Below, piece after piece: positions 5,662 through 64,000 of a stretch of DNA of 64,000 nt. The stretch is from an uncultured Actinoplanes sp. (GTDB taxonomy: Bacteria > Actinomycetota > Actinomycetes > Mycobacteriales > Micromonosporaceae): positions 76,828-140,827 of the forward strand of contig CAXSDA010000014.1 of NCBI GenBank assembly GCA_964236515.1, read 5' to 3'. The notes beneath the pieces were generated by a model. That model was not told the origin of the DNA. It did no database searches and saw nothing but the letters and a program-made list of their open reading frames with translations. How positions within the stretch are numbered: position 1 is the first letter of the stretch; the number at the start of each line of letters is the position of its first letter. The position numbers and the translations under genes were made by a program.

Positions 5662-5838
5662 GCTTCGAGGAGCAGGCGGCACCGCGAGTCCGGACGAGCG
5701 GCGTGCGGTTGCGCAGATCAAGGACTGACGACGCCGCCGGGCGCGGAGGCCGTCGCCGGCTGAATTTCTCAAGCAGCGCCGGCTCCCGCCGATGGAGAGG
5801 ACCAGCAGCAGTCGTACAGCCATCAGAAAGGCGTCACG

Positions 5839-6132: not shown

Positions 6133-6182
6133 TGCTCGCGCGGACCGCTCATATTGCGACGAGGACTGCCGAACGGGCACGT

Positions 6183-17312: not shown

Positions 17313-19507
17313 GCCGCGTGGCCGGCTGGTGCTTCCGGCATCGCGTACTCGTCCTGGTGCTGTGGCTGGTCGCCGTCGCCGCGCTCGCCGGCGCGACCCG
17401 GGCGGCCGGCAAGGACTACACCGACGGATTCTCGCTGCCCGGCACCGACTCCGCCCGCGCTACCCAGTTGCTGTCGGCGGCCGGGCAGCGGCCCGGTTCC
17501 GGCGACGACACGATCGTGCTGCACACATCGGCCCCCGGCCGGTCGATCACCGAACCCGCCGTACGGGAACAGATCACCGCGACCCTGAACGCCGCGTCGC
17601 GTCAGCCTCTGGTCACCAGCATCCGCAGCCCGTACGCGCCCGGCGCCTCCGCGCAGATCAGCGCCGACGGCCGGACCGCGTACGCGGTGGTCGGATTCGC
17701 CCAGCCCGACCAGAATCTGACCCGCCCGGACATCGACCCGTTGGTGACGACCGTGTCCACCCTGCGCAGCGCCGACCTGCAGGTCGAATTCGGCGGTGGC
17801 GGGTTCCAGACGCTCAAGGGCAGCCCGGTCTCCGGCAGCGTCGCCATCGGCCTGGCCGCCGCCGCGGTCGTGTTGTTCCTGGCCTTCGGGTCACTGCTCG
17901 CCACCGTCATCCCGTTGCTGGCGGCGATCCTGTCCGTCGGCGCCGGGATCGAGATCGTCGGACTGCTCAGCCATGTCCTGTCGATCAACTCGATCACCCC
18001 GTCGATCTGCGCCCTGATCGGTATCGGGGTCGCGGTCGACTACGCCCTGTTCGTGGTCACCCGTTTCCGCACCGGCCTGCGCGCCGACCTCGACCCGCAG
18101 CAGGCCACCGTCACCGCGTTGGCCACGTCGGGCCGGGCCGTCGTCTTCGCCGGCGCCACCGTCGCCGTGGCCATGCTCGGCCTCGTCCTGCTCGGGGTCG
18201 ACTTCCTGACCGGAGTCGGGGTGGCCGCCGCGATCACCGTCACGGTCGCCGTCGTCGTCGCCAACACGTTGCTGCCCGCGCTCTTCGGTCTGCTCGGCCG
18301 CCGGGTGCTCAGCCGCCGGGAACGTCGCCGGTCCGGCCCGGCCGACGAGTCGTCGACATCGCGCGGCTGGGCGCGGTGGGCGGGTCTCGTGGCCCGGCAT
18401 CCGGTGCCGCTGGCCGCCGCCGCCGCGATGGTCATGGTGGTGCTGCTGCTGCCGGCCCTGTCGATCCGGCTCGGCGCTTCCGACCAGGGCAACGACCCGG
18501 CGTCCTCGACCACCCGCCAGGCCTACGATCTGCTCGCCGGCGGCTTCGGTGCCGGCTACAACGGGCCGCTCGTCATCGTCGGCGCAACCACCGATCCGGC
18601 CGCCCGGCAGGCCTTCACGGACCTCACCACGCGCCTGAACGACGACCCGGGCGTCGCCTCCGCGACCGTGGTGCCACCGCCGTCCGCCACGGTGGCGGTC
18701 CTGACCGTCGTGTCCCGTACGGCACCACAGTCGGTCGCCACCACCCAGCTGATCGACCGCATCCGGGATCAGGCCATCCCCACGGCCGAACGCGGCACCA
18801 CCCTGCGGGCGTACGTCGGTGGTCAGACTGCCGTCTTCCAGGACTTCGCCGACGTCCTGGCCGGCAAACTGCCGCTGTTCCTGACCGTGGTCATCCTGCT
18901 CGGCTTCCTCCTGCTGGTCGTCGCGTTCCGCAGCCTCGTCATACCACTGACCGCGGCCCTGATGAACGTGCTGGCCGCCGGAGCCGCCTTCGGAGTCGTG
19001 GTCGCCGTCTTCCAGTGGGGATGGGGTTCCAACGCCATCGGGCTCGGCGCGCCCGGGCCGATCGAGTCCTTCCTGCCGGTCATGCTCATCGCGATCCTGT
19101 TCGGCCTGTCGATGGACTACCAGGTGTTTCTGGTGAGCCGGATCCGGGAGGAGTGGCAGCGCAGCCGCGACACCACGGCCGCCGTTCGCGCCGGGCAGGC
19201 CGCCACCGGCCGGGTCATCACCGCCGCCGCGGCCATCATGGTCCTCGTGTTCTGCGCGTTCGTCCTGGAAGGACGCCGCCCGATCGGGGAATTCGGGCTC
19301 GGCCTGGCGTGCGCCATCCTGATCGACGCCCTCGTCCTGCGCACCGTCCTGGTGCCGGCGGTCATGCAACTGCTCGGCCGCTGGAACTGGTGGCTACCCG
19401 GCTGGCTCGACCGGATTTTGCCGGGCCGGGAGGTTCCGATCGACTCGAGCGAAACCCGGCCGGAACGCTTCGGCGAGTACGAGCCGGCGGCCGGTCATGC
19501 CGGCTGA
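17309..19507 (+). CDS. MMPL (RND-type) family transporter
   Basis: MSRVAGWCFRHR..; GVAVDYALF, SGRAVVFAG, FGLSMDYQVFL..RIREE, TGRVITAAA, LVPAVM..LGRWNWWLP. ATGA overlap with the MFS tail. Confidence 0.95.
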   Translation: MSRVAGWCFRHRVLVLVLWLVAVAALAGATRAAGKDYTDGFSLPGTDSARATQLLSAAGQRPGSGDDTIVLHTSAPGRSITEPAVREQITATLNAASRQPLVTSIRSPYAPGASAQISADGRTAYAVVGFAQPDQNLTRPDIDPLVTTVSTLRSADLQVEFGGGGFQTLKGSPVSGSVAIGLAAAAVVLFLAFGSLLATVIPLLAAILSVGAGIEIVGLLSHVLSINSITPSICALIGIGVAVDYALFVVTRFRTGLRADLDPQQATVTALATSGRAVVFAGATVAVAMLGLVLLGVDFLTGVGVAAAITVTVAVVVANTLLPALFGLLGRRVLSRRERRRSGPADESSTSRGWARWAGLVARHPVPLAAAAAMVMVVLLLPALSIRLGASDQGNDPASSTTRQAYDLLAGGFGAGYNGPLVIVGATTDPAARQAFTDLTTRLNDDPGVASATVVPPPSATVAVLTVVSRTAPQSVATTQLIDRIRDQAIPTAERGTTLRAYVGGQTAVFQDFADVLAGKLPLFLTVVILLGFLLLVVAFRSLVIPLTAALMNVLAAGAAFGVVVAVFQWGWGSNAIGLGAPGPIESFLPVMLIAILFGLSMDYQVFLVSRIREEWQRSRDTTAAVRAGQAATGRVITAAAAIMVLVFCAFVLEGRRPIGEFGLGLACAILIDALVLRTVLVPAVMQLLGRWNWWLPGWLDRILPGREVPIDSSETRPERFGEYEPAAGHAG

Positions 19508-20815: not shown

Positions 20816-20872
20816 TTGACACAATCTACGGTCGACGTAACAATTATGAAACCTTGAGAGAGCGCTCTCTCA
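20816..20872 (+). promoter_or_regulatory. Promoter with LacI-type palindromic operator
   Basis: TTGACA 20816-20821, TAACAAT at 20838, and perfect 18-bp palindrome TGAGAGAGCGCTCTCTCA 20855-20872 with the AGCGCT core typical of LacI-family sites. Confidence 0.75.
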
Positions 20873-20978
20873 TAAAGATCCCGTCGCCCGACCTTCGCCG
20901 CCCCCTCGGCTGAAGGCAGCCCGCCGCCTGGTTCCCCTCCGCACGACGCCGGGCAGGCACAAGAACATAGGGAGCCGC

Positions 20979-23195
20979 ATGAGAGTCACCCCCCTCCGGC
21001 GCCGCCGCACGTTGTTCGCGGCGCTGGTACTCACGGTCACAGCCGCACTCAGCATCTTCGGTGGCAACCAGTTCGCTTCGGCCGCCGTCACCGGCAACAC
21101 CATCGCAGCTCCCGGCGGCAAGTGCGTCGACGTGAGCGGCGATGACACCGGCGTCAACGGCACCGCCATCCAGCTCTGGGACTGCCAGGCCACCAGCGCG
21201 GACCAGCACTGGACCTGGAGCGGCACCGCCCTCACCACGATCGGGCGTTGCCTGGACGTGACGAGCGGCGGCACCGCAAACGGCAGCCTGCTCCAGCTGT
21301 ACGACTGCAACGGTACCGGCGCGCAGCAGTGGACCCAGCAAGCAAACGGCAGCCTGAAGAACCCCCAGTCCGGCCGCTGCGTGGACTCGCCCGGCGGGGC
21401 CACCGCCAACGGAACCCGGCTACAGATCTATGACTGCAACGGCACCGGCGCCCAGGCCTTCATGGTCGGGACGACAACGACGCCGCCGCCCACCGGCACC
21501 TGCCCGACGTACTCCGACAACCCCGACTTCGGGGCGAACGTCCACATCTACGACCACTCGATGTCGGACGCCGCCATCCAGTCCTCGCTGGACAGCGTCT
21601 TCAACGCCCAGAAGGACACGCTGTCGGCGCAATTCGGCACCCGCCGCGACGCGTTGGTCTTCAAGCCGAGCACCACGCCGTACAACGTCGGCGCCAACAT
21701 CGGCTTCAACACCTCGATCCTGGGCGTCGGCCAGAACCCCGATGACGTCCGCATCAACGGTGCGGTGACGGTCGACGCATTCAACGCCAGCGACGGTGGG
21801 AACGCCACCCAGAACTTCTGGCGCTCAGCGGAGAACATGTCCATCAACAGTCTTGGCGGGGCCGACCGCTGGGCCGTCGCCCAGGCGGCGCCGTTCCGGC
21901 GGATGCACGTCATCGGTGGACTCAACGCCTACCCGGCCAGTTACGGCTGGGCGAGCGGCGGCTACATCGCCGACTCCAAGATCGACGGTACGGTCGAATC
22001 CGCTTCGCAGCAGCAGTGGTACTCGCGGGACAGCTCGTTCGGCGCGTGGAGCGGCTCCAACTGGAACATGGTCTTCTCGGGCGTGAACGGTGCACCGGCC
22101 ACGAACTTCAACACCGACCCCGCTTCCGGTCCGCGCTACACGACGCTGGCCACCACGCCGGTGTCGCGCGACGTTCCCTACCTCTACATCGACTCGGCCG
22201 GCAAGTACCGGGTCTTCCTGCCGTCACTGCGGACCAACGCCTCCGGGCCGAGCTGGGCCGGCGGCAGCACGCCCGGCTCGTCTCTGCCGATGAGTAACTT
22301 CTACGTCGTCAAGCAGGGCGACTCGGCGGCGAACATCAACACCGCGCTCGCCAACGGCTGCAACCTCTTCTTCACCCCGGGCATCTACCACGTCAACCAG
22401 ACCCTGCACGTGACCAAGGCCAACACGGTCGTGCTGGGCATCGGCTACCCGACGATCATCCCGGACAACGGCGTCAACGCGATGGACGTCGCGGACGTCG
22501 ACGGCGTACGCCTGAAGGGTCTGCTCTTCGACGCCGGAACCACCAACAGCGACACGCTGCTCAAGGTCGGCCTGTCCAAGTCGGGCGTAGCCCACGCGGC
22601 CAACCCGACGACGGTCCAGGACGTATTCTTCCGGATCGGCGGCATGGTGGCCGGCAAGGCCACCAACAGCCTGGTCGTCAACACCAACAACACGATCATC
22701 GACCACACGTGGGCCTGGCGGGCCGACCACGGTGCCGGGATCGGCTGGACGGTGAACACCGCGGACAACGGCCTGACCGTCAACGGTGACAACGTGCTCG
22801 CGACCGGTCTGTTCGTCGAGCATTACCAGAAGAACGAAGTTGTCTGGAACGGTGCCAACGGCAAAATCATCTTCTTCCAGAACGAGATGCCGTACGACCC
22901 GCCGAACCAGGCCGCCTGGATGAACGGCACGGCGAACGGCTACCCGGCGATCAAGGTGGCCAACACCGTCACCACGTTCGAGGCGTGGGGGCTCGGCAGC
23001 TACTGCTTCTTCAACGTCAACAACTCGGTGGCCTCGGCCCGCGCGTTCGAAGTACCCGCAGTAGCCGGGGTGAAGTTCCACGACATGGCGGTCGTCTCCC
23101 TGGGCGGCGTCGGCACCATCTCCAGAATCATCAACAACACCGGCGGCCCGGCCAACTCGACCACCAACAACGTCTACCTGGTCAACTTCCCGTAA
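20979..23195 (+). CDS. Secreted ricin-B (CBM13) + GH55-like exo-beta-1,3-glucanase
   Basis: Ricin QxW repeats; NATQNFWRSAEN, WAVAQAAPFRRMH, WASGGYIADS, SQQQWY, WRADHG, LFVEH, FQNEMPYD, as in bacterial GH55 enzymes. Confidence 0.88.
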   Translation: MRVTPLRRRRTLFAALVLTVTAALSIFGGNQFASAAVTGNTIAAPGGKCVDVSGDDTGVNGTAIQLWDCQATSADQHWTWSGTALTTIGRCLDVTSGGTANGSLLQLYDCNGTGAQQWTQQANGSLKNPQSGRCVDSPGGATANGTRLQIYDCNGTGAQAFMVGTTTTPPPTGTCPTYSDNPDFGANVHIYDHSMSDAAIQSSLDSVFNAQKDTLSAQFGTRRDALVFKPSTTPYNVGANIGFNTSILGVGQNPDDVRINGAVTVDAFNASDGGNATQNFWRSAENMSINSLGGADRWAVAQAAPFRRMHVIGGLNAYPASYGWASGGYIADSKIDGTVESASQQQWYSRDSSFGAWSGSNWNMVFSGVNGAPATNFNTDPASGPRYTTLATTPVSRDVPYLYIDSAGKYRVFLPSLRTNASGPSWAGGSTPGSSLPMSNFYVVKQGDSAANINTALANGCNLFFTPGIYHVNQTLHVTKANTVVLGIGYPTIIPDNGVNAMDVADVDGVRLKGLLFDAGTTNSDTLLKVGLSKSGVAHAANPTTVQDVFFRIGGMVAGKATNSLVVNTNNTIIDHTWAWRADHGAGIGWTVNTADNGLTVNGDNVLATGLFVEHYQKNEVVWNGANGKIIFFQNEMPYDPPNQAAWMNGTANGYPAIKVANTVTTFEAWGLGSYCFFNVNNSVASARAFEVPAVAGVKFHDMAVVSLGGVGTISRIINNTGGPANSTTNNVYLVNFP

Positions 23196-24258: not shown

Positions 24259-25923
24259 TCAAAGCTGCTTGATGTCCACCACGGAGAAGCCCACTCGGCT
24301 GTCCGTGCCCTCTCCGGTCCCGGTCGCACCGAGGACGACCTTGCCGGTTCGCAAGCTCGGATCGTTGACGGTCGCCGCCATCACCTGCTTGCCGTCGACG
24401 GAGACAGTGGCGATGTCGTGGTGGATGGTGATCCCCAGCGCATGCCTACTGCCGGCGGTGAACGTGCTCAACGTCGCCTTCGCCAGCGGGTGCAGGTCGT
24501 CTACATCGTCGAGGGCAACCGCCATGTCGGTGGCGCATGCCGCGACCCGATAGCCGCTGTCCTTGACGTATCGGAACCACACGGTCGCACACGTGTCCTT
24601 GCTGCGAAGCCGCACGTCGACCGTGATGGACTGGTCGCCTGAGAAGGTGTCCGCGGGTCCCGGGCACTGGTAGGCCGTGATCTCTACCGGCGACACCACC
24701 AGCTCACCGTTCGTGAATGTGCAGCTGCCGGCCTCGGTCGACGCTGTCGACCACAGGCCGGGCCTGTCCAGCCGGTCGAAGACTCTCGGCCCTTGAACAT
24801 CGCGGGAGGATGACGAGGCCGACGGCGAGGTGAGGAGAGCGGTCGACCCTGCTCCGGAGCCGAGATCGTGACGGGCCACCAGCACCGCGGCCCCGGCGGT
24901 GGCAAGGACGACCAGCCCGGCGGCGGCCAGTTTCAGCGTACGGCGGGGAGCTTTGCGCACGACGGTCGTGACCGGCGCGACCGACTGCCCGCCGCTCATA
25001 TAGCGGCCGGAGTGCTGCGCCGCTTCAGCCGCGTGCCGCAATTCCGGATATGCGGCCAGGTCGACGGCTGCCTGGTAGGGGCCGGTTGTCAGCAACTGAT
25101 CGAGCAGATCGTGCGCGGTCGGCCGGTCCCCCGGCTCCTTGGCCAGAGTGAGGGCAACCAGATCCTTCAACTGGCCGGTGAGCCCGGTCAACACCGGCGG
25201 CTGGGTCAGGATCCGGGCGGCCGTGGCGGCGGCCGAGTCGCCCGCGAACGGCGTCCGCCCGGTGGCCGCGTACGCCACGACCGCCCCCCAGGCGAACACG
25301 TCGGCGGCTGGGGTGATCGCCCGGCTGTTGCCGTCGAACCGCTCCGGCGCCATGTACGCGACCGTGCCCACCATCTGGTCGGTCTTCGTGTGCTGGCTCG
25401 TCACCTCCAGCGCCCGGGCGATACCGAAGTCGATCACCTTGGGGGTGCCGAGCGAGAACAACACGTTGGCCGGCTTGAGGTCGCGGTGAATGACTCCGGC
25501 GCCGTGGATCGCCGCCAGCGCCGTCGCCACCCCGATCGCGACGCTGTGCAGGTTGCCGGCCGCGAGCGGGCCCTGATCACCGACCACCTGGGCCAGATTG
25601 GGCCCGTCGACGTACTCGACCACCAGGTACGGTGTGCGATGCTCGGGATCGGCGTCGAGCACCTCGGCGGTGCAGAACGGCGGAACCTGCCGGGCCCGGT
25701 TCACCTCGCTGCGGAACCGGGCCCGGAACTCGTCTTCAGCTGCGTACTCGGCCCGAATGACTTTGACCGCGACGAGCCGGCCCGAGGTGGCCCGGCCGAG
25801 GTACACGGTGCCCATCCCCCCTTGACCGAGACGCTCAAGCAACTCGTAACCGCCCAGGTGCCGAGGGTCACCAGGACGCAGCTCTTTGCTCACCGGCCGC
25901 AGGCTACTCGGCCGAGAAGCCAT
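24259..25923 (-). CDS. Membrane Ser/Thr protein kinase with C-terminal extracellular beta-rich domain
   Basis: GQGGMGTVY, VAVKVI, HRDLKPANV, DFG, GTVAYMAPE, DVFAWG; TM helix LKLAAAGLVVLATAGAAVLVA. Confidence 0.95.
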   Translation of the reverse strand: MASRPSSLRPVSKELRPGDPRHLGGYELLERLGQGGMGTVYLGRATSGRLVAVKVIRAEYAAEDEFRARFRSEVNRARQVPPFCTAEVLDADPEHRTPYLVVEYVDGPNLAQVVGDQGPLAAGNLHSVAIGVATALAAIHGAGVIHRDLKPANVLFSLGTPKVIDFGIARALEVTSQHTKTDQMVGTVAYMAPERFDGNSRAITPAADVFAWGAVVAYAATGRTPFAGDSAAATAARILTQPPVLTGLTGQLKDLVALTLAKEPGDRPTAHDLLDQLLTTGPYQAAVDLAAYPELRHAAEAAQHSGRYMSGGQSVAPVTTVVRKAPRRTLKLAAAGLVVLATAGAAVLVARHDLGSGAGSTALLTSPSASSSSRDVQGPRVFDRLDRPGLWSTASTEAGSCTFTNGELVVSPVEITAYQCPGPADTFSGDQSITVDVRLRSKDTCATVWFRYVKDSGYRVAACATDMAVALDDVDDLHPLAKATLSTFTAGSRHALGITIHHDIATVSVDGKQVMAATVNDPSLRTGKVVLGATGTGEGTDSRVGFSVVDIKQL

Positions 25924-25957
25924 CGGGTGCCACACCCGGCGCCATCCACTGATGTGA

Positions 25958-26716
25958 TCAAATAACTCTTCGCGTTCTCCGTTCGTCGAGATGGCTCTCC
26001 ATGTCTGCAGCATCGCGCGTGCCATCCGAGACAGCCGGCGCCGCCGCTGGCCTGTCCGGGCCTGGCACCACCGCAGCCACCCGGACGAAGCCGCCGTGCA
26101 CCTGCCAGCGTCCGGTCACTTCGGTCAGCGGTGGGTGGCCGTCCCGCCGCGGGCCAGGCCGCAGCAGCCGCGCCGTGAATGAGCCCGATGCGGTGAACCG
26201 AAGCTCCGCCTCTTCAAATCCGAGTTGCCGTTGCCCGGTGAGCGGATACCAAGTTTTGAACACGGTCTCCTTGGCGCAGAACAGCAACCGGTCCCAGTGC
26301 AGGCCGGGCACCACCCGGTGCAGCCGGGCCAGATGGTCGCGCTCGGCCGGAAGTGATACCGCATCCAGGACACCGACGGGCAACGCAGCGTGCGGTTCGG
26401 CGTCGATGCCGATTGCGGCCACCGTGCCGTACAGGGCCACGGCCGCCGCCCGGTAGCCCGCGCAGTGCGTGATGCTGCCGACCACCCCGTCCGGCCAGAG
26501 CGGTTCCCGGTCGGGCCCGCTGGGGATCGCCACCGCCGGCACTCCGAGCGCCACCAGGGCCGCACGGGCGCAGCGACGGGCGGTCACAAACTCGCGGCGC
26601 CGCGACGTCACCGCCCGCGCGACGGCCGCCTCCTCGCCCGGGAACACCGGCTCGTCCGGGTCGTCGGAGTACGCCTCCGCGGTCGCCACCCCGTCCGGTG
26701 TCAGCTGCCCGATCAT
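25958..26716 (-). CDS. 4'-phosphopantetheinyl transferase, PptT/EntD-like
   Basis: RRREFVTARRCARAAL, WPDGVVGSITHC, IGIDAEP, LLFCAKETVFKTWYP; ATGA-coupled to the upstream gene. Confidence 0.94.
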   Translation of the reverse strand: MIGQLTPDGVATAEAYSDDPDEPVFPGEEAAVARAVTSRRREFVTARRCARAALVALGVPAVAIPSGPDREPLWPDGVVGSITHCAGYRAAAVALYGTVAAIGIDAEPHAALPVGVLDAVSLPAERDHLARLHRVVPGLHWDRLLFCAKETVFKTWYPLTGQRQLGFEEAELRFTASGSFTARLLRPGPRRDGHPPLTEVTGRWQVHGGFVRVAAVVPGPDRPAAAPAVSDGTRDAADMESHLDERRTRRVI

Positions 26717-28888: not shown

Positions 28889-29092
28889 CTATTCCGCGAC
28901 GTAAGTACGGCCTGTCCAATAATAAATCGCGCCGTCACTGGACGGTTCGCGCTCGAAATGTTCGTAGCCGCCGTAGTGGCAGACTTTGACGCAGTCATCG
29001 GCGCTCGAAACGAGCGGGTGGCGCAGCTCCTCGGGGAGCAATGCCGGGCCGCCGCGCAGGTCAGCAGTTACGAGACGTTGGGTGTCAGTCAT
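28889..29092 (-). CDS. Small DUF5988-like protein
   Basis: LRGGPALLPEELR..VKVCHYGGYEHFER..YYWTGRTYVAE pattern; GGAGG RBS. Confidence 0.8.
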   Translation of the reverse strand: MTDTQRLVTADLRGGPALLPEELRHPLVSSADDCVKVCHYGGYEHFEREPSSDGAIYYWTGRTYVAE

Positions 29093-33888: not shown

Positions 33889-34671
33889 TCAGGAGCGGAC
33901 GTAGTCGGGCAAGACCTGGGGCGGCCAGGAGCCGATCCGGAAAAGACCCATGGAATACGACTTCGACACCAGCGCTGCCCGATTGGGCACCTTGAACTGA
34001 CGGAGCATGTTGCCGACGTGGTATTCGACTCCCTGCCGGCTGAGAAACAGCCGCGAAGCCAGCTGAACCGTTGGCGCGCCGGCGGCCACGCCTTCCAAGA
34101 TCTGCGCATTTATTTGCGAGAGCAGTTTCGTGGGGCTTATCAGGGTCCGCCGGTTTCCCCCGTCCTCGGCGTTGATCATGATCAGAATTGATTCGACCCG
34201 GCCGCCGGCGTCCTCATTGGCGCAGGCGGTCACCGTTCCGCTGAGGGTCGTGCTGGTTTCCCACAGAGCGGCCAGGTTCTCGACGAAACTGTTACTGCGC
34301 CGCTGGACCAGGCGATCGAACTGCCGCGTCATGACACCACGGACGCTGGGGTGTAACAGTTCGCAGATATCGCGTCCCAGCAGCGTGTCCGCCGTGCGCC
34401 CGCACTGTTCGACGAAGTATCGGTTGTGGTCGCTGATCCGTGCACTGGCATCGAGCACGGCGATCGCGGCATTGACGTTCTCCATGGCGGACTGCAATTG
34501 GCCCGGAGTCTGCGTCCGCGGTTTCACCAGAGAATCCTCAGCAGGCGCCGCAACGAAATCGCTCAACCCGGGCACACCGGTTGCGAAAACCACGATAGGT
34601 CTCCTATCTGAGATAGAGAAGGCGCGTCTGGGGGGCAGAGTTCTCTTCCTGCGCTCGGATGTCACGGACAT
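33889..34671 (-). CDS. PAS-LuxR pathway regulator (PimM/NysRIV/AmphRIV family)
   Basis: PAS segment; ILEGVAAGAPTVQLASRLFLSRQGVEYHVGNMLRQFKVPNRAALVSKSYSMG..SWPPQVLPDY. True start may be downstream of 34671. Confidence 0.93.
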   Translation of the reverse strand: MSVTSERRKRTLPPRRAFSISDRRPIVVFATGVPGLSDFVAAPAEDSLVKPRTQTPGQLQSAMENVNAAIAVLDASARISDHNRYFVEQCGRTADTLLGRDICELLHPSVRGVMTRQFDRLVQRRSNSFVENLAALWETSTTLSGTVTACANEDAGGRVESILIMINAEDGGNRRTLISPTKLLSQINAQILEGVAAGAPTVQLASRLFLSRQGVEYHVGNMLRQFKVPNRAALVSKSYSMGLFRIGSWPPQVLPDYVRS

Positions 34672-35468: not shown

Positions 35469-38285
35469 GTGGATGTCGACCTGGAAAAGAAGGAAAGCAT
35501 GTCGCTTGTGGGACGCGACGGAGAGTTGAGGCGGCTGCAGGCCGGATTCGACGAGAGCGCCCGGGGCAATGGGCGGATCCTGCTGATCGGCGGACCGGTC
35601 GCGATCGGAAAGACCGGGCTTCTCGAGGCCTTCGCCGGGCGGGCGCGGTCGGCCGGCGCCACGGTGGCCAGCGCCTCCGGGTCGAGCAACGAGCGTAATC
35701 TTTCGCTGAGCGTCATCGGGCAGCTCTTCGCCAGCGCCGGCGTGCCGTCGAACGTCGTCAACGGCGTGATGGACATAGGGCAATGCTTGGCCGACGTCGA
35801 ACCGGGGTCGTCCACCACCGAACGGACCCTGGTCACCCTGCTGCAGGCGGTCGCCGCCGCCCTGCTGGCCCTGGCCGTTAAACAGCCCCTGGTGATCGCG
35901 GTCGATGACATCGACGTCAGCGACGATCTCTCCCTGCGGGCCATCCTGTACCTGGTTCGCCGCATCCGGTCCGCCAACGTCCTGGTGCTGCTCACCCAGC
36001 TCGCGTCCCCCCAGCCGACCCGACCGAACTACTACGCCGAGCTGATGCGACAGCCGCACTGCAGCAGCCTCACGCTCGCGCCACTCTCCCGCCAGGACAC
36101 CGTCGCATTGCTCAGCCGGGACCTGGGCCCCGTCCGCGCAGCCCGGATCGGAGCGGAGTGTTACGACGTGACGGGCGGCAACCCGATGCTGATCCGGGCG
36201 CTTGGGACCGATCAGCCGGCACCGGCCGACGATGCGTCCATCGCGCGCGAGGATCGGCTGGTCGTCGGAAACACGTTCGAACGGGCCATCATCAGCTGCC
36301 TATATCGATCACCCCCCGGATACCGCGAGGTAGCCCACGCGATCGCCATGCTGGACAACTGGACCTCGCCGGCTTTGATCAGCCGGCTGTCGGGCATGGA
36401 CACGGCGGCGGTCGACCGGGCCCTGGCCGGTTTGCGCAGCGGCGGGCTGCTTTATTCGCAACGTCTGCGTCACCACGTGGCCCGGCATGCCATCCTGGCC
36501 GACATTCCCGGCCCAGCGGTCTCGCAGCTGCACCGGCGGGCGGCCGAACTTCTGCACATGGACGCCGCGACGCCGATGGCGATCGCGGAGCACCTGCTGC
36601 AGAGCGACGACGTCGCGCCGCCCTGGGCCGCGGCCACGCTGCGCCTCGCGGCGGACAACGCACTCGACTCCGGTGAGGCCGTGTTCTCCGCGGACTGCCT
36701 ACGGGCGGCGTACGAATGCAGCCTCGACGACAGCGAGCGCGCCCAGGTCCGAGCTGCGGTCGTCCGGGCTCAGTGGCGCGAGGATCCGGCCCTGGCCCTG
36801 CGCTACTTCGACGAGCTCAATGTCGCCATCCGGCGCGGGTACCTGACCGGCCGCGACGCTCTCATGCAGATCTGCCGTATGCTCTGGTACGGCCAGACCG
36901 ACGAGGCTCTGCTGGCCATCGAACGGTTCGGCCGGGCGAGTGACTTCACCTCCGCCGAACTGGTCGCCGATCTGCGCTTCACCCGGGCCTGGGTAAAGTC
37001 CGTGTACCCCGGGCTGCCGATCGAGCAGCAGTTTTCGTCGATGATCGACGCGGCGGCGCCGCTGAGTGCCACGGCTGTGCCCGAACTGAAAGCCGCGGAT
37101 GTGCTCAGCGCCGTACTTGACCGCGGCGTCGACGAGGGCGCCGTGGTGATCATGGAACAGGTACTCAAGCGGACTGTACTGGACGACTACACCCTGATGC
37201 TGCTGACGACCGGGGTCGGCAGCCTGCTGCACGCCGACCGGCTCGAGGAGGCGGCGAGTTGGTGCGACCGGCTCGGTCAGCAGGCCCGGACCCGCCGGGC
37301 GCCGACCTGGCAGGCGATCGTGATGGCCCTCAGGGCCACGGTCTCGCTGCGTGCGGGCGACCTGGAGATCGCCGCCGAGGGTTGCCGCCGGGCCTTCGAC
37401 CTGCTCGAGCCGGACGGCTGGGGGGTGGCCATCGGACTGCCGTTGTCGACCCTGTTGCAGGCAGCGACGTCGAGCGGTGATCTGAGCGCCGCCGCCCGCT
37501 GGCTCGACCAGCCGATCCCGGAGTCCATGTTCCAGAGCACCTTCGGGCTCGCCTACCTACATGCCCGGGGCAGCTACTATCTCGGGACCGGCCGGCCGAA
37601 AGCCGCGCTATCCGACTTCTACGCCTGCGGCAATCTGATGGTGAGCTGGGGAATAGACACCCCCGCCTACGTACCCTGGCGGGCGGAGGCGGCCCAGGCG
37701 TGGCTGCTGATCGGCCGGCCCGGGACCGCCCAGGAACTGATCAACGATCAGCTGCACATCCTGGGCGACCAGCCCTCCCGAGCCCGGGGCCTGACCCTCT
37801 GGCTGCAGGCCGCGATCACCGCTGATCGGCAGCATCTGGCGTTGCTCACCGAGGCGGTCAGCATCCTGGCGACGACCGGGGACCGCCTCTCGTACGCCCG
37901 GGCCGTTCACGACCTCGAACGGGCGCAGCGCCAGTTAGGTGATGGCCTCGCCGCCCGGCAGCAGGCCGATGGACGAGCGTGGTCGGTGGCGGCCGAGTTC
38001 AACACCGGGCAGTCACAGCAGATCACACTGCCCCGCGCCGCCCACCCCCCGGGCATGGGAACTTTCCGGCCGACGGGTGTGGCATCCACGCTCAGCGACG
38101 CGGAGCTGCGGGTAGCGACGCAGGCGGCCCGGGGCCGGACAAACCGAGAGATCGCCCAGGCCCTGTTCATCACGGTGAGCACAGTGGAGCAGCACCTGAC
38201 GCGCGTCTACCGCAAGCTGGGCGTCAACCGCCGCGCCGACCTGGCGTTACGGCTACGCACCCCACGCGCCAACCTCGCCAGCTGA
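35469..38285 (+). CDS. LAL family (large ATP-binding LuxR) regulator
   Basis: LVGRDGEL, Walker A GPVAIGKT, Walker B VIAVDD, TGGNP, C-terminal LSDAELRVA..GRTNREIAQALFITVSTVEQHLTRVYRKLGV. Confidence 0.95.
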   Translation: MDVDLEKKESMSLVGRDGELRRLQAGFDESARGNGRILLIGGPVAIGKTGLLEAFAGRARSAGATVASASGSSNERNLSLSVIGQLFASAGVPSNVVNGVMDIGQCLADVEPGSSTTERTLVTLLQAVAAALLALAVKQPLVIAVDDIDVSDDLSLRAILYLVRRIRSANVLVLLTQLASPQPTRPNYYAELMRQPHCSSLTLAPLSRQDTVALLSRDLGPVRAARIGAECYDVTGGNPMLIRALGTDQPAPADDASIAREDRLVVGNTFERAIISCLYRSPPGYREVAHAIAMLDNWTSPALISRLSGMDTAAVDRALAGLRSGGLLYSQRLRHHVARHAILADIPGPAVSQLHRRAAELLHMDAATPMAIAEHLLQSDDVAPPWAAATLRLAADNALDSGEAVFSADCLRAAYECSLDDSERAQVRAAVVRAQWREDPALALRYFDELNVAIRRGYLTGRDALMQICRMLWYGQTDEALLAIERFGRASDFTSAELVADLRFTRAWVKSVYPGLPIEQQFSSMIDAAAPLSATAVPELKAADVLSAVLDRGVDEGAVVIMEQVLKRTVLDDYTLMLLTTGVGSLLHADRLEEAASWCDRLGQQARTRRAPTWQAIVMALRATVSLRAGDLEIAAEGCRRAFDLLEPDGWGVAIGLPLSTLLQAATSSGDLSAAARWLDQPIPESMFQSTFGLAYLHARGSYYLGTGRPKAALSDFYACGNLMVSWGIDTPAYVPWRAEAAQAWLLIGRPGTAQELINDQLHILGDQPSRARGLTLWLQAAITADRQHLALLTEAVSILATTGDRLSYARAVHDLERAQRQLGDGLAARQQADGRAWSVAAEFNTGQSQQITLPRAAHPPGMGTFRPTGVASTLSDAELRVATQAARGRTNREIAQALFITVSTVEQHLTRVYRKLGVNRRADLALRLRTPRANLAS

Positions 38286-38348
38286 TCCCGGTAACGCCGA
38301 CCGCCACCGGTCTTCGGGACCGATGGCGGGCGAGCGTTCGTGCCGGTC

Positions 38349-40793
38349 TCAGTCGTCGGTTCGGAAGTCGGGTGGCGGAAGACGGCGTATGGCCACGGTG
38401 GGGAAGTCCCGCTTGAGCCCGTCCGGCCTCGGGTCGTACTGGTGCGGATCTTCGCCGGCGGCCTCAATCACCGCGGCCGCGTCGAGCCGGGACATGCAAG
38501 GTGTCCTGCGCCCGCACCAGGCGCAGGTGCGATCACCCTTGTCGACGTGACGCTGATAGGCCTCGATCGAGAGGTGATGGGTGATCGATCCACGCAGGCC
38601 GGTGATGGCTTCGTGCATCTTCGCGGGGGGATAGTCCGGCTCGACGACCGGGATCGGCTCGGGGTCGCTCGCCGGCGGATAGAAGGTGCCGGAAGCGAGG
38701 CCGTTCCCGGCGAGGTGGCGCCCGACCGCAGCCGCCGGCCCATCGGGAATCCGGGGTGTGTCAGGGACCGGGGGAAGGTCGGGCTGGGCGGGGGCCTCGA
38801 CCGCCCGGCCGACCAGAGGCTCCGGCTGCTCCCTGGTCTCATCCGCCGTCGAGGCGTCATCGTCGGGCTCCTGCGGGGGCACCCCCAAGGCGTACAGGCG
38901 GGCATAGTGGCCGTGCGCGGCGATCAGCTCGTCATGAGTACCGCGTTCGACAATATTTCCGTTCTGCATGACCAGGATCAGGTCGGCTTCGCGGATGGTG
39001 GACAGCCGGTGGGCGATCACGAAGCTGGTGCGTCCCTCGCTCAGCTGCGCCAGCGCCTGCCGGATATCCAGCTCGGTGCGGGTGTCCACCGAGCTGGTGG
39101 CCTCGTCCAGCAGCAGGATGCGCGGCTCGGCGAGGAAGACCCGCGCCACCGTCACCAGCTGCTGCTGGCCGGTGCTGATGCCGGCCGAGTCGGGCATGAG
39201 TATCGTGTCGTAGCCCTCGGGCAGCGTGTCGACGAACCGGTCGACGCAGGCCGCCCGAGCGGCGGCCTCGATCTCCTCCCGGGAGGCGTCCGGCCGGCCG
39301 TAGGCGATGTTCTCCGCGATGGTTCCCTCGAAGATCCAGCTGTCCTGGCTGACCAGCCCGATCTCGCGGCGCAGGTCGTCGCGGGTCATCCGGGCGATGT
39401 TCACGCCGTCGAGCATGATGCGGCCCATGTCGAGCTCGTAGAAACGCAACAACAGGTTGCCGAGAGTGCTCTTGCCGGCGCCCGACTCGCCGACTACGGC
39501 AACAGTCTGTCCCGGTTCGACGACCAGGTTGAGGTCCTGGATCAACGGCTGGTCCGGGCTGTAGCTGAACGAGACCCGGGAGAACTCGACGCGGCCCTCG
39601 ACAGTCGCCAGGCGCAGCGGCTCGTCCGGGTCCGGTGACTCCTCCTCGACGTCGAGAATCTCGAAGACGCGCTGGGCGGAGACGTAGCCGGACTGAAGCA
39701 CCCCGGCGACGTTGGTGACCTCGGCGAGGGACTGCCCGAATTGACCCGAGTACTGGATGAAGGCCTGGACGTCGCCGACGGAGATCATCCCGCTGCCGAT
39801 GCGCAACGCACCGACGACCGCGACCGCGACGTAGTTGAGGTTCGTGATGAGTCGCGTCCCCGGCTCGATCGAGCTGGCCAGGAACTGAGCCTTGCCCGCG
39901 GCGTGCAGCATCTTGGCGTTGTGACCGTCGAAGTCGCGCTCGACCACCTCACGGGTGCCGAACCCCTTGACCAGCGCGTGCCCGGTGTACATCTCCTCGA
40001 CGTAGCCGTTGAGCGCCCCGGTGGCGGCCCATTGCTGGCCGAAGCGCAATCGGGCCCGTTTGCCGATGCCGTAGGACAGCACCAAGGTCAGCGGGACGCT
40101 GACGAGGACCACGGCCATCAGTAGCGGGGCAATCAGGTACATGACCGCGAGCAGGCCGATGACCGTGAAGATCTGAGTGAGCACGCTGCTGACGGTCTGT
40201 TGCAGCGTTCGCTGGATGTTGTCGATGTCGTTGGTCATCCGGCTCAGGACTTCGCCCTTGCTGATGGTGTCGAAGGCGCTGAGGGGCAGCCGGCTCAGCT
40301 TGTCCTCGAGCCGTTCCCGCAGATCGAAGACCAGCCGCTGAACGACGACGACGATCAGCCGGCCCTGGATAAACAGGCAGAGCACGTTGGCCATGTAGAT
40401 GGCGAGCGCGATCAGCAGCACATGCTCGATGGCGGCGAAGTCGATGCCTCGGCCGGGGATGACATTCAGTTTCTTGACGATCAGGGCGAGATTGTTCTCA
40501 TCCTTTTCTGCCAGGTACTGCAGGGCGACGTCCTGGGTCACCCCGGGAGCCCGGCGACCGACTTCGCGGCCGATCACGCCGGAGACGATGAGGTCGGTTG
40601 CCCGGCCGAGTAGTTTCGGCCCGGCCAGGCTGAGCGCGACGCTGGCCATACCGAACAACAGCGAGAGCGCGACGATGTACCACTGCGGCGTGAGCAGCTG
40701 CATCAGGCGCCCGACGATGCCCGGCGGCTTCTGTGGTTGCCGGGGCAGCGGTGCCGCCGCCTTTTCCGCTTTCGGTGCCGTGGCGACACTCAT
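38349..40793 (-). CDS. ABC exporter subunit (TMD-NBD) with a ~175-aa C-terminal extension
   Basis: GESGAGKST, ISTGQQQ, ILLLDEATSSVD, AHRL; then a Pro/acidic linker and HVDKGDRTCAWCGRRTPC. ATGA-coupled to the upstream subunit. Confidence 0.93.
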   Translation of the reverse strand: MSVATAPKAEKAAAPLPRQPQKPPGIVGRLMQLLTPQWYIVALSLLFGMASVALSLAGPKLLGRATDLIVSGVIGREVGRRAPGVTQDVALQYLAEKDENNLALIVKKLNVIPGRGIDFAAIEHVLLIALAIYMANVLCLFIQGRLIVVVVQRLVFDLRERLEDKLSRLPLSAFDTISKGEVLSRMTNDIDNIQRTLQQTVSSVLTQIFTVIGLLAVMYLIAPLLMAVVLVSVPLTLVLSYGIGKRARLRFGQQWAATGALNGYVEEMYTGHALVKGFGTREVVERDFDGHNAKMLHAAGKAQFLASSIEPGTRLITNLNYVAVAVVGALRIGSGMISVGDVQAFIQYSGQFGQSLAEVTNVAGVLQSGYVSAQRVFEILDVEEESPDPDEPLRLATVEGRVEFSRVSFSYSPDQPLIQDLNLVVEPGQTVAVVGESGAGKSTLGNLLLRFYELDMGRIMLDGVNIARMTRDDLRREIGLVSQDSWIFEGTIAENIAYGRPDASREEIEAAARAACVDRFVDTLPEGYDTILMPDSAGISTGQQQLVTVARVFLAEPRILLLDEATSSVDTRTELDIRQALAQLSEGRTSFVIAHRLSTIREADLILVMQNGNIVERGTHDELIAAHGHYARLYALGVPPQEPDDDASTADETREQPEPLVGRAVEAPAQPDLPPVPDTPRIPDGPAAAVGRHLAGNGLASGTFYPPASDPEPIPVVEPDYPPAKMHEAITGLRGSITHHLSIEAYQRHVDKGDRTCAWCGRRTPCMSRLDAAAVIEAAGEDPHQYDPRPDGLKRDFPTVAIRRLPPPDFRTDD

Positions 40794-42520
40794 AGCACTG
40801 CTCCCGCAAGCTGAGATTCGGCGATGTCCCGGTAAATTTCGCTGTTGGCCCGCAACTCCTCGTGGGTTCCGGAGCCCACGATGCGTCCTTGGTCGAGAAC
40901 GATGATGCGGTCCGCGGCCCGGACCATGGCGACCCGCTGAGCAACCATCACAACCGCCTTCGAGGCCAGGGCCTCGATGAGCGAGGCCTGGACGAGGGCG
41001 GCGGTCTCGGCGTCCAGCGCCGAGAAACAGTCGTCCAGTAGGTAGATGTCGCATTTGCAGAGCAGGGCCCGCGCTATGGCGAGCCGTTGGCGCTGGCCCC
41101 CGGAAAGTTCAAAGCCGCCCTGATCAGTGGGGGTCCGCAGACCCAGTGGCATCGCCTCGACGAACTCGCGGGCATGGACGATGTCCAGGGCCTGCCACAG
41201 TTCCTCTTCGGTGGATTCAGGACTGCCGAAGAGCAGGTTGCTTTCGATGGTTCCGGAGAACAGGTACGGGGTCTGCGGCACCAACGCGACGGTGCGGGGC
41301 AGGACGTCCTCGGCGATCAGGCGGGCGTCGATGCCGTTGATCAGCACTGAGCCGCCGGTCGGGTCGTACAGGCGGATGGCCAGGTTGAGCAGCGTGGACT
41401 TGCCGCTGCCGGTACGGCCGAGCACGCCGAGGACGTCGCCCGGGCCGCAGCCCAGGTCGATGTCGTGCAGAGCCGGCTCGCGGCCGCCGGGGAAGGCGAA
41501 GGTCACCAAGCGCATCTCGAGCAGGCCGTCGGCGGTGATGGCGTCGACCGCCTTGGACGGCACCGGAACGCCGGTCGCAGTGGTCATCACTTCCATGATC
41601 CGGCCGGCCGAGACCCGGGCCCGGGGCACGCTGGCGAAAACGACGATCGCCATCGTGATGGCCATGACGCAGAAGCCCATGTAGCTCAGCAGGGCGGTGA
41701 GCGTGCCGGGTTCCATCTGCTCGGCACCGATACGGCGGGCACCCCAGTAGATGAGTACGACGCTGAAGAGGTTCATCGTCAGGATCACGGCCGGGGGGAT
41801 GGCGATGATCAGCATGCCGACGTGCTTGGACGCGTTGCGCAGCCCGACGTTCTCCGCGTTGAACCGCCGGCGCTCCCGGTCCTCCATGACAAAGGCACGG
41901 ACCACTTGCACGCCGGAAATCTGCTCCCGCAGGATGCGGTTGATCCGGTCCAGGGAGAACTGCATCTTGGCGTACCACGGTCCCATCCGGGCGAGGATGA
42001 GCAGCGCCGAGAAGGTGACCGCGATCATCGCCCCGACCAGCAGGAACGACATCGGGATGTCGAGGTTGGCGGCCAGCACGAAGGCGCCGATGATAGTGAC
42101 CGGGATCGGGATGGTGTTGTTCAGCATCGCCACGGCGAGGGTCTGCACCTGGTCGACGTCGTTGACGCTGCGGGTGACCAGCGATGACGGCCCGAACCGG
42201 CCCACGTCGCGTTCGGAGAAGTCCTGCACGTGACGGAAGAGGTGCGAGCGCAAATCTCGGCCCACCGAGGTGGCCACGCGCGCGGCGATGTAGACGACGC
42301 CGAGCTGCGCCAAGGCCTGGGCCACGGTCAGGCCGATCATGATCGTGCCGATGTGCAGGATGTAGTCGATGTTCCCCTCGACGACCCCTTTGTTGATGAT
42401 GAAGGCGTTGAGAGTAGGTAGCAGCAGGGTACCGATGACCTGCGCCAGGCTCAGGATGGAAAGAAGCACCAGCCGTCCCCGATATGGGCGAAGATTTGTG
42501 AGCAAGAATTTGGTCAGCAC
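40790..42520 (-). CDS. ABC exporter subunit (TMD-NBD) with degenerate catalytic residues
   Basis: GRTGSGKST, LSGGQRQR, Walker B LLDD (no Glu), AQR (no His); GGAGG RBS before GTG 42520; alternative ATG 42562. Confidence 0.93.
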   Translation of the reverse strand: MLTKFLLTNLRPYRGRLVLLSILSLAQVIGTLLLPTLNAFIINKGVVEGNIDYILHIGTIMIGLTVAQALAQLGVVYIAARVATSVGRDLRSHLFRHVQDFSERDVGRFGPSSLVTRSVNDVDQVQTLAVAMLNNTIPIPVTIIGAFVLAANLDIPMSFLLVGAMIAVTFSALLILARMGPWYAKMQFSLDRINRILREQISGVQVVRAFVMEDRERRRFNAENVGLRNASKHVGMLIIAIPPAVILTMNLFSVVLIYWGARRIGAEQMEPGTLTALLSYMGFCVMAITMAIVVFASVPRARVSAGRIMEVMTTATGVPVPSKAVDAITADGLLEMRLVTFAFPGGREPALHDIDLGCGPGDVLGVLGRTGSGKSTLLNLAIRLYDPTGGSVLINGIDARLIAEDVLPRTVALVPQTPYLFSGTIESNLLFGSPESTEEELWQALDIVHAREFVEAMPLGLRTPTDQGGFELSGGQRQRLAIARALLCKCDIYLLDDCFSALDAETAALVQASLIEALASKAVVMVAQRVAMVRAADRIIVLDQGRIVGSGTHEELRANSEIYRDIAESQLAGAVL

Positions 42521-42578
42521 GGGCACACCCTCCGGGAGCCAAGCCGGGAACGTATAACGCATTCGACCATTGAGCCCG

Positions 42579-42627
42579 CTTAGGGCATCCCTAGTCTTCG
42601 ATCCGCTCCGATCGCTGGTTTCCCTAG
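42579..42627. promoter_or_regulatory. Two PAS-LuxR operator-like sites
   Basis: CTTAGGGCATCCCTAG (42579-42594, 12/16) and TCGCTGGTTTCCCTAG (42612-42627, 11/16) in the divergent ABC/gmd gap. Confidence 0.6.
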
Positions 42628-42729
42628 GGCTGCGCCGATTGTCTTGACCGGGATGGCGCCGCGCTGGGAAGGTCCAGATCACCTGACCATTGGCGCGAGC
42701 GGAAACGACACGGCAGAGAGGCGGGCTCG

Positions 42730-43800
42730 ATGTCCAGGCGTGCACTGATAACCGGTATCACCGGACAGGACGGCTCCTACCTCGCGGAGCACCTGCTGAC
42801 TCAGGGATACGAGGTCTGGGGGCTGGTGCGCGGGCAGGCGAATCCGCACAAGTCCCGGATCAGCCGGCTGGTGTCGGCCGTCTCCTTCGTCGAGGGCGAT
42901 CTGATGGATCAGAGCAGCCTGGTTGCGGCGGTGGAACGGGTCCAGCCGGACGAGTTCTACAACCTCGGCGCCATTTCGTTCGTCCCGCTGTCGTGGCGAC
43001 AGCCCGAGCTGGTGACCGAGGTCAACGGCATGGGCGTGCTGCGCTGCCTGGAGGCGATCCGGATGGTGAGCGGGCTCAACGGTTCCGGTCACGTCGGTGG
43101 CCGGCAGATCCGCTTCTACCAGGCCTCGTCGTCGGAGATGTTCGGCAAGGTCGCCCAGACGCCGCAGTGCGAGACGACGATCTTCCACCCGCGCAGCCCC
43201 TACGGGGTGGCCAAGGCGTACGGGCACTTCATCACCAAGAACTTCCGCGAGTCGTTCGGCCTGTACGCGGTCTCCGGGATGCTCTTCAACCACGAGTCAC
43301 CCCGGCGCGGAGCCGAGTTCGTCACCCGCAAGATCTCGATGGCGGTCGCCCGGATCAAGACGGGCACCCAGCAGGAACTGCACCTCGGCAACCTGGACGC
43401 CGTCCGCGACTGGGGTTTCGCCGGCGACTACGTGCGCGCCATGCATCTCATGCTGCGGCGCGACGAAGCCACCGACTACGTCATCGGCACCGGCCGGATG
43501 CACTCGGTCCGCGAGGCCGTCGAGATCGCTTTCGATCATGTCGGACTCGACTGGCGAGATCACGTCAAGGTCGATCCTGCTCTGGTCCGCCCGGCCGAGG
43601 TGGAGACCCTGTGCGCCGACTCGCGGCGCGCCCAGAACGACCTCGGCTGGAAGCCTACGGTGGACTTCCCGGAGCTGATGAGAATGATGGTCGACTCTGA
43701 CCTGCACCACGCCCACCGTCAGCGCGATTACGAGACGTTCCTCGAGACGGCGCCCAGCCGGCCCGACCACGCGGATGTCGGAGTGCTCGCCGCCTGGTAG
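42730..43800 (+). CDS. gmd: GDP-mannose 4,6-dehydratase (NysDIII/PimJ-like)
   Basis: ALITGITGQDGSYLAE, YQASSSEMFG, PRSPYGVAK, LFNHESPRRG, FVTRKI, LGNLDAVRDWG, RPAEV. Confidence 0.97.
   Translation: MSRRALITGITGQDGSYLAEHLLTQGYEVWGLVRGQANPHKSRISRLVSAVSFVEGDLMDQSSLVAAVERVQPDEFYNLGAISFVPLSWRQPELVTEVNGMGVLRCLEAIRMVSGLNGSGHVGGRQIRFYQASSSEMFGKVAQTPQCETTIFHPRSPYGVAKAYGHFITKNFRESFGLYAVSGMLFNHESPRRGAEFVTRKISMAVARIKTGTQQELHLGNLDAVRDWGFAGDYVRAMHLMLRRDEATDYVIGTGRMHSVREAVEIAFDHVGLDWRDHVKVDPALVRPAEVETLCADSRRAQNDLGWKPTVDFPELMRMMVDSDLHHAHRQRDYETFLETAPSRPDHADVGVLAAW

Positions 43801-44531: not shown

Positions 44532-64000
<19,469 letters not shown>

Follow-up and report, generated by a model that had tools for sequence, protein, structure and literature searches.

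Introduction

Heterodimeric ATP-binding cassette (ABC) exporters in which one of the two ATP sites is degenerate are a known group, to which LmrCD, EfrCD, BmrCD and PatAB belong together with TM287/288 and MsRv1273c/72c (PDB entry 8WCW). The subject of this paper is a pair of such half-transporter genes, here called ABC1 and ABC2, located in a 64,000-nucleotide stretch of DNA from an uncultured Actinoplanes sp. (positions 76,828 to 140,827 of contig CAXSDA010000014.1, assembly GCA_964236515.1; this whole stretch is referred to as the window, and coordinates are counted from its first letter). In common with TM287/288 and MsRv1273c/72c, the two genes are adjacent and coupled and one ATP site of their product is degenerate; unlike either of those systems, ABC2 runs on for 177 residues, through a linker and into a putative metal-knuckle domain, and no solved chain with such a C-terminal domain was found in sequence searches of the PDB. 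The added domain comes from a family of small actinobacterial proteins that has no established name and is marked by one His and three Cys; the name HC3 is used for it here. It is argued below that its fusion to the exporter is old and maintained, and that its role may be to couple export to regulation.

Extra domains appended to the C-termini of nucleotide-binding domains (NBDs) have been described before, the regulatory domain of MalK (which binds MalT and EIIAGlc), the C2/NIL domain of MetN, the TOBE domain of ModC and the carbohydrate-binding domain of Wzt being established examples. ABC2 shares with these the position of its extra domain, the link between transport and regulation being in the present case only a proposal, but the proteins just named are mostly importers that carry beta-rich ligand-binding domains, whereas ABC2 is part of an exporter, and a long, flexible linker attaches a His-Cys3 knuckle to it.

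As regards genomic setting, the nearest comparisons are NysG/NysH, AmphG/AmphH and PimA/PimB, with which the present pair shares a cluster comprising a modular polyketide synthase (PKS), a GDP-mannose 4,6-dehydratase, a DegT-type aminotransferase and regulators of the LAL and PAS-LuxR types. None of those three exporters is known to have a C-terminal appendage.

The ABC2 gene and the anatomy of its tail

The gene lies within an open frame on the minus strand that runs from 41054 to 38349 (open reading frame (ORF) list and translation). Over the first 87 codons of this frame the GC content at third codon positions (GC3) is about 0.4, rising to 0.8–1.0 from Met88 on, and the true start is therefore taken to be the ATG at 40793. 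Only one database protein (P0002, 814 aa) is 100% identical to the resulting product. The same ATG shares the letters ATGA with the stop codon of ABC1, an overlap which indicates that the two genes are translationally coupled. The features that matter for what follows are these:

40790–42745, minus strand: ABC1, a TM287-like half-transporter (transmembrane domain plus NBD; Pfam ABC_membrane and ABC_tran), its N-terminal start being uncertain
38349–40793, minus strand: ABC2 with its tail, 814 aa plus stop (ORF list, translation, database match P0002)
39729–40670, minus strand: transmembrane domain of ABC2, aa 42–355 (Pfam ABC_membrane, E 9e-48)
38883–39539, minus strand: NBD of ABC2, aa 419–637 (Pfam ABC_tran over aa 419–567, together with motif positions)
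38610–38882, minus strand: Pro/acidic linker of 91 aa, aa 638–728 (alignment of five ABC-linked tails and AlphaFold2 (AF2) model)
38433–38609, minus strand: HC3 core domain of about 60 aa, aa 729–787 (family search, alignments, and AF2 model with predicted local distance difference test score (pLDDT) of at least 95)
38352–38432, minus strand: C-terminal tail of 27 aa, ending RRLPPPDFRTDD (alignments including stand-alone relatives)
38288–38346, no strand assigned: GC-rich hairpin (RNA folding) that fills the 63 nt separating ABC2 from the convergent LAL gene

The initial annotation, made from the letters alone, had described an ABC exporter that continues in frame for some 175 residues past its NBD and ends in a His/Cys domain, and this description is confirmed. 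The NBD closes with GHYARLYALG (38883–38912), after which a further 177 aa follow in the same single frame as far as the stop codon at 38349–38351; a Pfam scan of ABC2 gave no match C-terminal of the NBD. Within this extension the peptide MHEAITGL...HQYD is present at 38433–38618, and the spacing H-x7-C-x2-C-x5-C is exact, the four residues being H749 (38547–38549), C757 (38523–38525), C760 (38514–38516) and C766 (38496–38498), with an AAGEDPxxYD motif closing the core. GC3 in the ABC2 frame holds at 0.77–0.90 across the entire tail, so that the tail is to be regarded as coding sequence and not as accidental read-through.

Two stretches of the linker are semi-conserved when the five ABC-linked tails are aligned, namely a short helix, AAAVGRHLAGN (38703–38735), and the motif FYPPASDP (38661–38684). 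At the other end of the domain, the terminal RRLPPPDFRTDD looks like a degenerate form of the motif GRRxxVPYxxYER with which stand-alone relatives end. The hairpin at 38288–38346 has a computed folding energy of -39.4 kcal/mol (z -3.99), a stability equalled by none of 200 shuffled sequences, and it is likely to be a bidirectional terminator that marks the natural 3' end of the ABC2 gene.

The exporter core

ABC1 has the Walker A sequence GRTGSGKST and a canonical LSGGQ signature, together with a Walker B sequence (LLDD) in which Asp stands for the catalytic Glu, and with a Gln at the position of the switch His; in ABC2 the Walker A sequence is GESGAGKST, the signature is the non-canonical ISTGQ, and both the catalytic Glu (in the Walker B sequence LLLDE) and the H-loop His are present. 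Taken together these motifs identify the pair as a heterodimeric exporter in which one of the ATP sites is degenerate, such sites being recognised by loss of the Glu, the switch His or both in one subunit and a non-canonical signature in the other (PMC7756269, PMC12038006). The tail-bearing ABC2 is, on this basis, the TM288-like subunit, from which the consensus site receives its catalytic residues. Its closest solved chains are 8wcw_B of MsRv1273c/72c (643 aa; E 7e-189) and TM288 (3qf4_B, 598 aa; E 1e-127), and the pair accordingly shows all three marks of a type IV exporter of the TM287/288 kind, i.e. architecture (transmembrane domain plus NBD), degenerate-site pattern and close homology to solved members. 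In transporters of the MsRv1273c/72c type the C-terminal helices of the two NBDs are in mutual contact even in the apo state (PMC12038006), and it is from the position of that helix that the tail of ABC2 departs.

The general expectation, also voiced in the initial annotation, is that such exporters end soon after the NBD. This is the case for both solved chains, which stop 10–20 residues past it, and also for a tailless ABC paralogue, 48–55% identical to ABC2, which is present in all of the 60 other Actinoplanes genomes sampled and at a second locus of the window's own genome. Alignments to this paralogue nearly always stop near residues 634–660 (the few longer ones pass through stop codons) and in none of the 60 genomes do they reach the HC3 core; only the copy linked to the cluster thus has the tail. 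The paralogue, found as it is in every sampled Actinoplanes genome, appears to be a housekeeping heterodimeric exporter distinct from the copy in the cluster. The copy in the window's genome (G000:C6:124477-126390) is 54% identical.

The HC3 domain

Conservation within the HC3 family is concentrated on the four candidate metal ligands. Among 115 sequences the His is conserved in 98% and each of the three Cys in 99%, and in a 50-sequence alignment H31, C39, C42 and C48 do not vary at all; the Pro that precedes Cys3 (96%), the CxxCG knuckle and the closing motif AxxVIxAAGEDPxxYD are conserved as well (50 and 115 sequences). The spacing C-x2-C-x5-C is fixed throughout, and the distance from the His to the first Cys shifts by one or two residues. 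The window's domain contains the family core motif, I-x-G-L-x-G-S ... Y-x-R-H-x(6-9)-C-x2-C-G-x3-P-C ... A-x2-V-I-x-A-A-G-E-D-P-x2-Y-D, its relatives being found with phmmer E values down to 6e-23, and with the exception of one substitution discussed under its proposed role, all invariant columns of the family are present in it. Most stand-alone members continue beyond the core to end in GYxLGGxGRRxxVPYxxYER.

An AF2 model of the domain, computed with the family alignment and thus also carrying out a check that the initial annotation had named, has a mean pLDDT of 86.8, rising to 95–97 over residues 11–70. The predicted topology is helix-knuckle-helix: a first helix ends at the His, a short hairpin bears Cys1 and Cys2, and Cys3 lies at the N-terminus of helix 2, which is followed by a short helix 3. 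When a 131-aa segment was modelled, the part of the linker included (aa 684–728) was of low confidence (pLDDT 60–78, with the FYPPAR motif at about 60), so that the folded module would consist of the core of about 60 aa alone. The net charge of the core is near zero, which favours protein binding over DNA binding.

The four residues are predicted to coordinate a single structural metal ion, in all likelihood Zn(II), which would hold the small domain together, a putative assignment that is made because the ligands are near-invariant and because the modelled topology is that of a knuckle plus helix; a CxxCG knuckle combined with a helix N-terminus is a classic structural-zinc arrangement. The plausible zinc site of the initial annotation has to this extent been strengthened, the metal itself being a prediction. 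A different possibility, which we consider unlikely, is that the His and three Cys hold an iron–sulphur (Fe-S) cluster, or a redox-labile zinc-thiolate site, and act as a redox or Fe-S sensor. In its favour, a ligand set of three Cys and one His is compatible with Fe-S clusters, and the C-x2-C-x5-C spacing, in which a helix begins at the third Cys, is also that of the WhiB-like (Wbl) proteins; these too are small actinobacterial proteins, and as Fe-S proteins they work with transcription factors. However, HC3 has three Cys and a His and does not have the G[V/I]WGG turn, no match to the Pfam Whib family was obtained at E<=1, and hhalign gave a probability of 0.55% against WhiB1, so that membership of the WhiB family was rejected. 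The CxxCG knuckle with its helix N-terminus, being typical of structural zinc, also speaks against this alternative. The data as such are compatible with zinc as well as with Fe-S. The zinc motif of the ZAS anti-sigma factors (zf-HC2, H-x3-C-x2-C) was also considered and set aside: the His in HC3 is separated from the first Cys by seven residues, and no zf-HC2 match was found among the 50 members scanned.

No Pfam, NCBIfam or PHROG family was found for HC3, nor any sequence relative in the PDB, and a Foldseek search with the AF2 model gave no match in the PDB or in BFVD. In particular, nothing pointed to homology with TOBE, NIL or MalK-type domains: the 178-aa tail gave no Pfam or NCBIfam match, and Foldseek gave none either. 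Source databases label the members "hypothetical protein". HC3 is thus an uncharacterised actinobacterial domain family: the exporter core is ordinary, and it is the appended domain and its family that are undescribed in the libraries searched.

Fused relatives and the age of the fusion

Relatives were sought by an exhaustive HMMER search of 1.84 billion proteins with the last 96 aa of ABC2 as query, which yielded 115 cluster representatives at E<=1e-3, 33 of them at E<=1e-10, so that the motif can hardly be due to chance. A search with the tail alone had been proposed at the outset as a way of comparing fused with stand-alone homologues, and both kinds were found. The 115 representatives are mostly stand-alone proteins of 80–170 aa, and the initial annotation had allowed that homologues might never be fused; in fact the same C-terminal fusion is seen in two further metagenome ABC proteins, P0006 (772 aa) and P0145 (800 aa, a mate of the fragment P0003 in the same 90%-identity cluster), in P0007, a metagenome fragment at a contig edge which begins inside the NBD with GGYYAKLYSHG, and in G010, a metagenome-assembled genome (MAG) of the same genus (Actinoplanes sp. 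isolate BP_228). In this last case the locus comprises LAL, PAS-LuxR, VOC, ABC1, ABC2 with tail, and PKS genes, which is to say a related cluster. At least four further sequences, independent of one another and obtained from different samples, therefore keep the fusion, with a tail identity of 45–57%.

These sequences bear directly on whether the fusion is real. An error in sequencing or assembly, or the loss of a stop codon in this strain alone, might have joined an ABC gene to a separate small gene downstream, in which case the functional protein would not include the tail, and this explanation could appeal to the mostly stand-alone character of the family as well as to P0001, a relative (70% identical) from a JGI metagenome that is annotated as a 679-aa ABC gene and a 150-aa HC3 gene with a 4-bp overlap. 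The first 50 residues encoded by that HC3 gene, however, can be aligned to the linker found in the fused proteins, FYPPARxP motif included, so that P0001 looks like a fused gene with a frameshift inside it. Against an artefact there are, in addition, the five independent sequences that keep the fusion at such low tail identity, the continuous GC3 of the frame through the tail, and the terminator hairpin directly past the stop; an internal translation start at M726 was examined and rejected, there being no Shine-Dalgarno sequence before the ATG and the Met not being conserved. The artefact explanation is already largely refuted, and we attach very little probability to it. The possibility, raised in the initial annotation, that a sequencing error had removed a stop is likewise countered, if indirectly, by the persistence of the fusion in independent sequences.

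A maximum-likelihood tree of 116 cores places those linked to ABC proteins in a single clade, nested among stand-alone proteins (ultrafast bootstrap/SH-aLRT support 98/91), from which it follows that a small-protein gene was captured once, the fusion then being kept while the tails diverged. The idea of a small downstream gene captured by loss of a stop codon thus survives in one part, in that the core is homologous to stand-alone small proteins; the capture itself is old and maintained, and not a local accident. No HC3 homologue was found in plasmid and phage collections, so that an origin from a mobile element is unsupported.

The fusion is nevertheless rare. Searched for with the tail itself, it was present in 2 of 37 Actinoplanes genomes, and class- and phylum-level searches (400 genomes each, with 11–12 candidates scored per genome) gave no match outside the window's genome. 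A word-index search for fused relatives returned the window's own protein alone, being insensitive enough to miss P0006 and P0145, and no relatives came from scans of metagenome contigs or from the first scan of genome contigs. Two apparent matches were discarded: that of L018, in an Acidimicrobiaceae MAG, is an unrelated protein sharing only "EAYQRHVD", and P0014 (1632 aa) is a false positive whose score was inflated by its eight repeats.

It is this small size and rarity of the fused clade, together with the long and poorly conserved linker, that might suggest a mere passenger, i.e. a domain that is harmless or does no more than aid folding, stability, oligomerisation or localisation, with no part in signalling. 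The fused members have, however, fully kept the ligands and core motifs in spite of a divergence to about 50% identity, implying purifying selection on the HC3 domain itself, and a passenger role seems to us rather improbable.

Genomic contexts of stand-alone HC3 genes

Regulators with an XRE-type helix-turn-helix (HTH) domain are involved in six of nine independent contexts in which stand-alone HC3 genes were found. The arrangements concerned, together with one direct fusion, are as follows:

One type of metagenome cassette (three HC3 clusters): an HTH_31/HTH_3 gene, followed some 40 bp downstream by the HC3 gene
L034: HC3 gene and HTH_58 gene overlapping by 4 bp
L020 and L003: HC3 gene divergent from an HTH_31 gene, the neighbour in L003 also having DUF5753
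L035: HTH_31/DUF5753 gene at a distance of 1.2 kb
P0037: a single protein in which an XRE-type HTH is fused with HC3

The cassette is conserved, its layout in L008 (2763-3011, 4187-4939, 4982-5290 and 5379-5582) being the same in L005 and L010. Encoded in it are an 82-aa protein, a protein that is NsdA-like or of unknown type, an XRE protein with a double HTH, the HC3 protein itself and a 67-aa protein that is also conserved. The 82-aa protein is itself a distant HC3 paralogue, with the pattern H-x8-C-x2-C-x5-C (hhalign E 4e-5), and the XRE protein has conserved CxC pairs alongside its double HTH. Pairs of DUF397 and DUF5753 genes occur close to the HC3 cassettes. In being small proteins encoded beside XRE regulators, the HC3 proteins resemble the BldB/DUF397 partners of WhiJ-like XRE proteins (HTH_31 plus DUF5753); the analogy is positional only, since HC3 is a separate sequence family, gives no DUF397 match and, unlike DUF397, has a metal motif.

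Contexts other than these were also seen. In P0024 (349 aa) a YbjT-like, NAD(P)-binding protein bears an HC3 domain at its C-terminus, after a long linker, and in L036 (166-1717) a stand-alone HC3 gene lies just upstream of a gene for an NAD-dependent epimerase; HC3 and NAD(P)-binding or epimerase proteins may thus be a second recurring partnership. The P0024 fusion and the CxC pairs of the cassette XRE proteins both fit the redox alternative described above, in which oxidation or loss of a cluster would gate ATP hydrolysis or export or, in the stand-alone systems, the paired HTH regulator, a mechanism that we likewise hold to be unlikely. At L019 (2907-5965) a stand-alone HC3 gene stands between a homologue of the 67-aa-protein gene and a 101-aa ORF, with genes for an ATP-grasp protein (MvdD-type) and a PCMT methyltransferase following; its gene content is that of a putative graspetide-like locus for ribosomally synthesised and post-translationally modified peptides. 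The window's genome contains a second, distant HC3-like domain (L014; G000:C26:~119365-119517, minus strand; VQAH...CPVCGEPLPCPTGRAAAEVLFAAG), at the N-terminus of a protein with a Pro/Ala-rich tail of about 500 aa and no Pfam family. From these sequences HC3 thus has the appearance of a portable module, tethered to or encoded with varied partners, most often transcription regulators.

Proposed role of the tethered domain

The reading that we prefer, to which we would assign a probability of roughly 50%, is that HC3 in ABC2 is a zinc-stabilised protein-interaction or regulatory module, tethered to a catalytically competent NBD and coupling export to regulation. An interaction or regulatory role is proposed because stand-alone HC3 genes adjoin, are translationally coupled to or are fused with XRE-type HTH regulators, and the new regulatory appendage suggested in the initial annotation gains indirect backing from this association. 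According to this proposal, a linker of some 90 residues would suspend HC3 from the C-terminal helix of the active NBD, where it could bind a soluble protein, a transcription regulator being the most plausible candidate; such binding would then couple the state of the exporter to gene expression. The coupling would be comparable in function to the way in which the C-terminal domain of MalK holds MalT, no homology being implied. Alternatively, HC3 might fold back on the NBD dimer and tune its ATPase activity.

Several observations weigh against this reading. The HTH association is seen for stand-alone members and may not extend to the fused clade, which has linker motifs of its own and retains only a degenerate remnant of the end motif GYxLGGxGRR...YER; moreover the window has Arg two residues before Cys1, where 92% of the family has Gly. 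Finally, no XRE HTH was found among the window ORFs scanned with Pfam (those of at least about 150 aa with coding-like GC3), so that a regulator partner would have to be encoded elsewhere or belong to another family.

A bolder version, which we regard as speculative and would not expect to be correct, is that HC3 is a metal-dependent actinobacterial adaptor, not described before, that binds and controls regulators of the XRE/WhiJ type, its fusion to the active NBD making the exporter a "trigger transporter". If true, the transport cycle or the redox state of this transporter would decide whether the regulator is sequestered or released, and antibiotic export would be in direct feedback with gene expression.

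The surrounding gene cluster

The remaining genes of the cluster that bear on the function of the exporter are these:

44532–63998, minus strand: giant modular type I PKS ORF, upstream of the ABC pair (Pfam KS-AT-DH-KR-ACP and ORF scan)
35469–38285, plus strand: LAL-type regulator, convergent with ABC2 (Pfam AAA_16 and GerE)
33889–34671, minus strand: PAS-LuxR regulator, PimM-like (Pfam PAS and GerE)

Pfam identifies as further neighbours a VOC/glyoxalase protein, a GDP-mannose 4,6-dehydratase, a carboxyltransferase and a DegT-type aminotransferase. By family assignment the neighbouring genes correspond to the gene set of a putative glycosylated polyene macrolide cluster, and the exporter lies where one for a polyene would be expected, its neighbours including mycosamine genes and a modular PKS as well as regulators of the PAS-LuxR and LAL types. 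By analogy, ABC1 and ABC2 are presumed to export the polyene product.

This setting invites the thought that the tail docks a substrate or pathway component, its binding of the polyene, of an enzyme of the pathway or of the PKS serving to channel product to the exporter. The fused clade is indeed found only with this type of PKS cluster (the P0007 gene being followed by a DUF5988 gene), and its conserved linker motifs are specific to the clade. Stand-alone homologues, on the other hand, occur in unrelated contexts with no PKS, a 60-aa metal knuckle offers no obvious pocket for a macrolide, and no co-varying partner was identified. Docking to the PKS, mentioned in the initial annotation, found no support, and docking of any of these kinds is in our view improbable.

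The cluster in the window has a DUF5988 gene (28892–29077, minus strand), and another, on a metagenome contig (L016:804-1079), comes right after a fused ABC-HC3 gene; DUF5988 may be a recurring member of such clusters. Outside the cluster, the left half of the window has genes at 5115–8408 (plus), 16628–19507 (plus), 20850–23195 (plus) and 24259–26115 (minus), for a GGDEF-EAL protein, an MMPL transporter next to a TetR regulator, a ricin-B lectin protein and a Ser/Thr kinase.

Significance

Accessory domains on ABC exporters are a main route by which transport is wired to regulation. To our knowledge, few such domains have been described on heterodimeric exporters with a degenerate site and none on the exporters of antibiotic clusters, so that what is reported here is a conserved new exporter architecture, in a cluster that would make a potentially useful antifungal. 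Beyond the exporter itself there is a whole unannotated family, with about 115 sequence clusters, a His-Cys3 site, a confident and novel-looking predicted fold and a recurring partnership with XRE regulators, which merits definition as a family in its own right. If HC3 does link export to transcription or to redox state, it would offer a handle for the engineering of polyene production, and would represent a new case of transporter-based signalling in actinomycetes.

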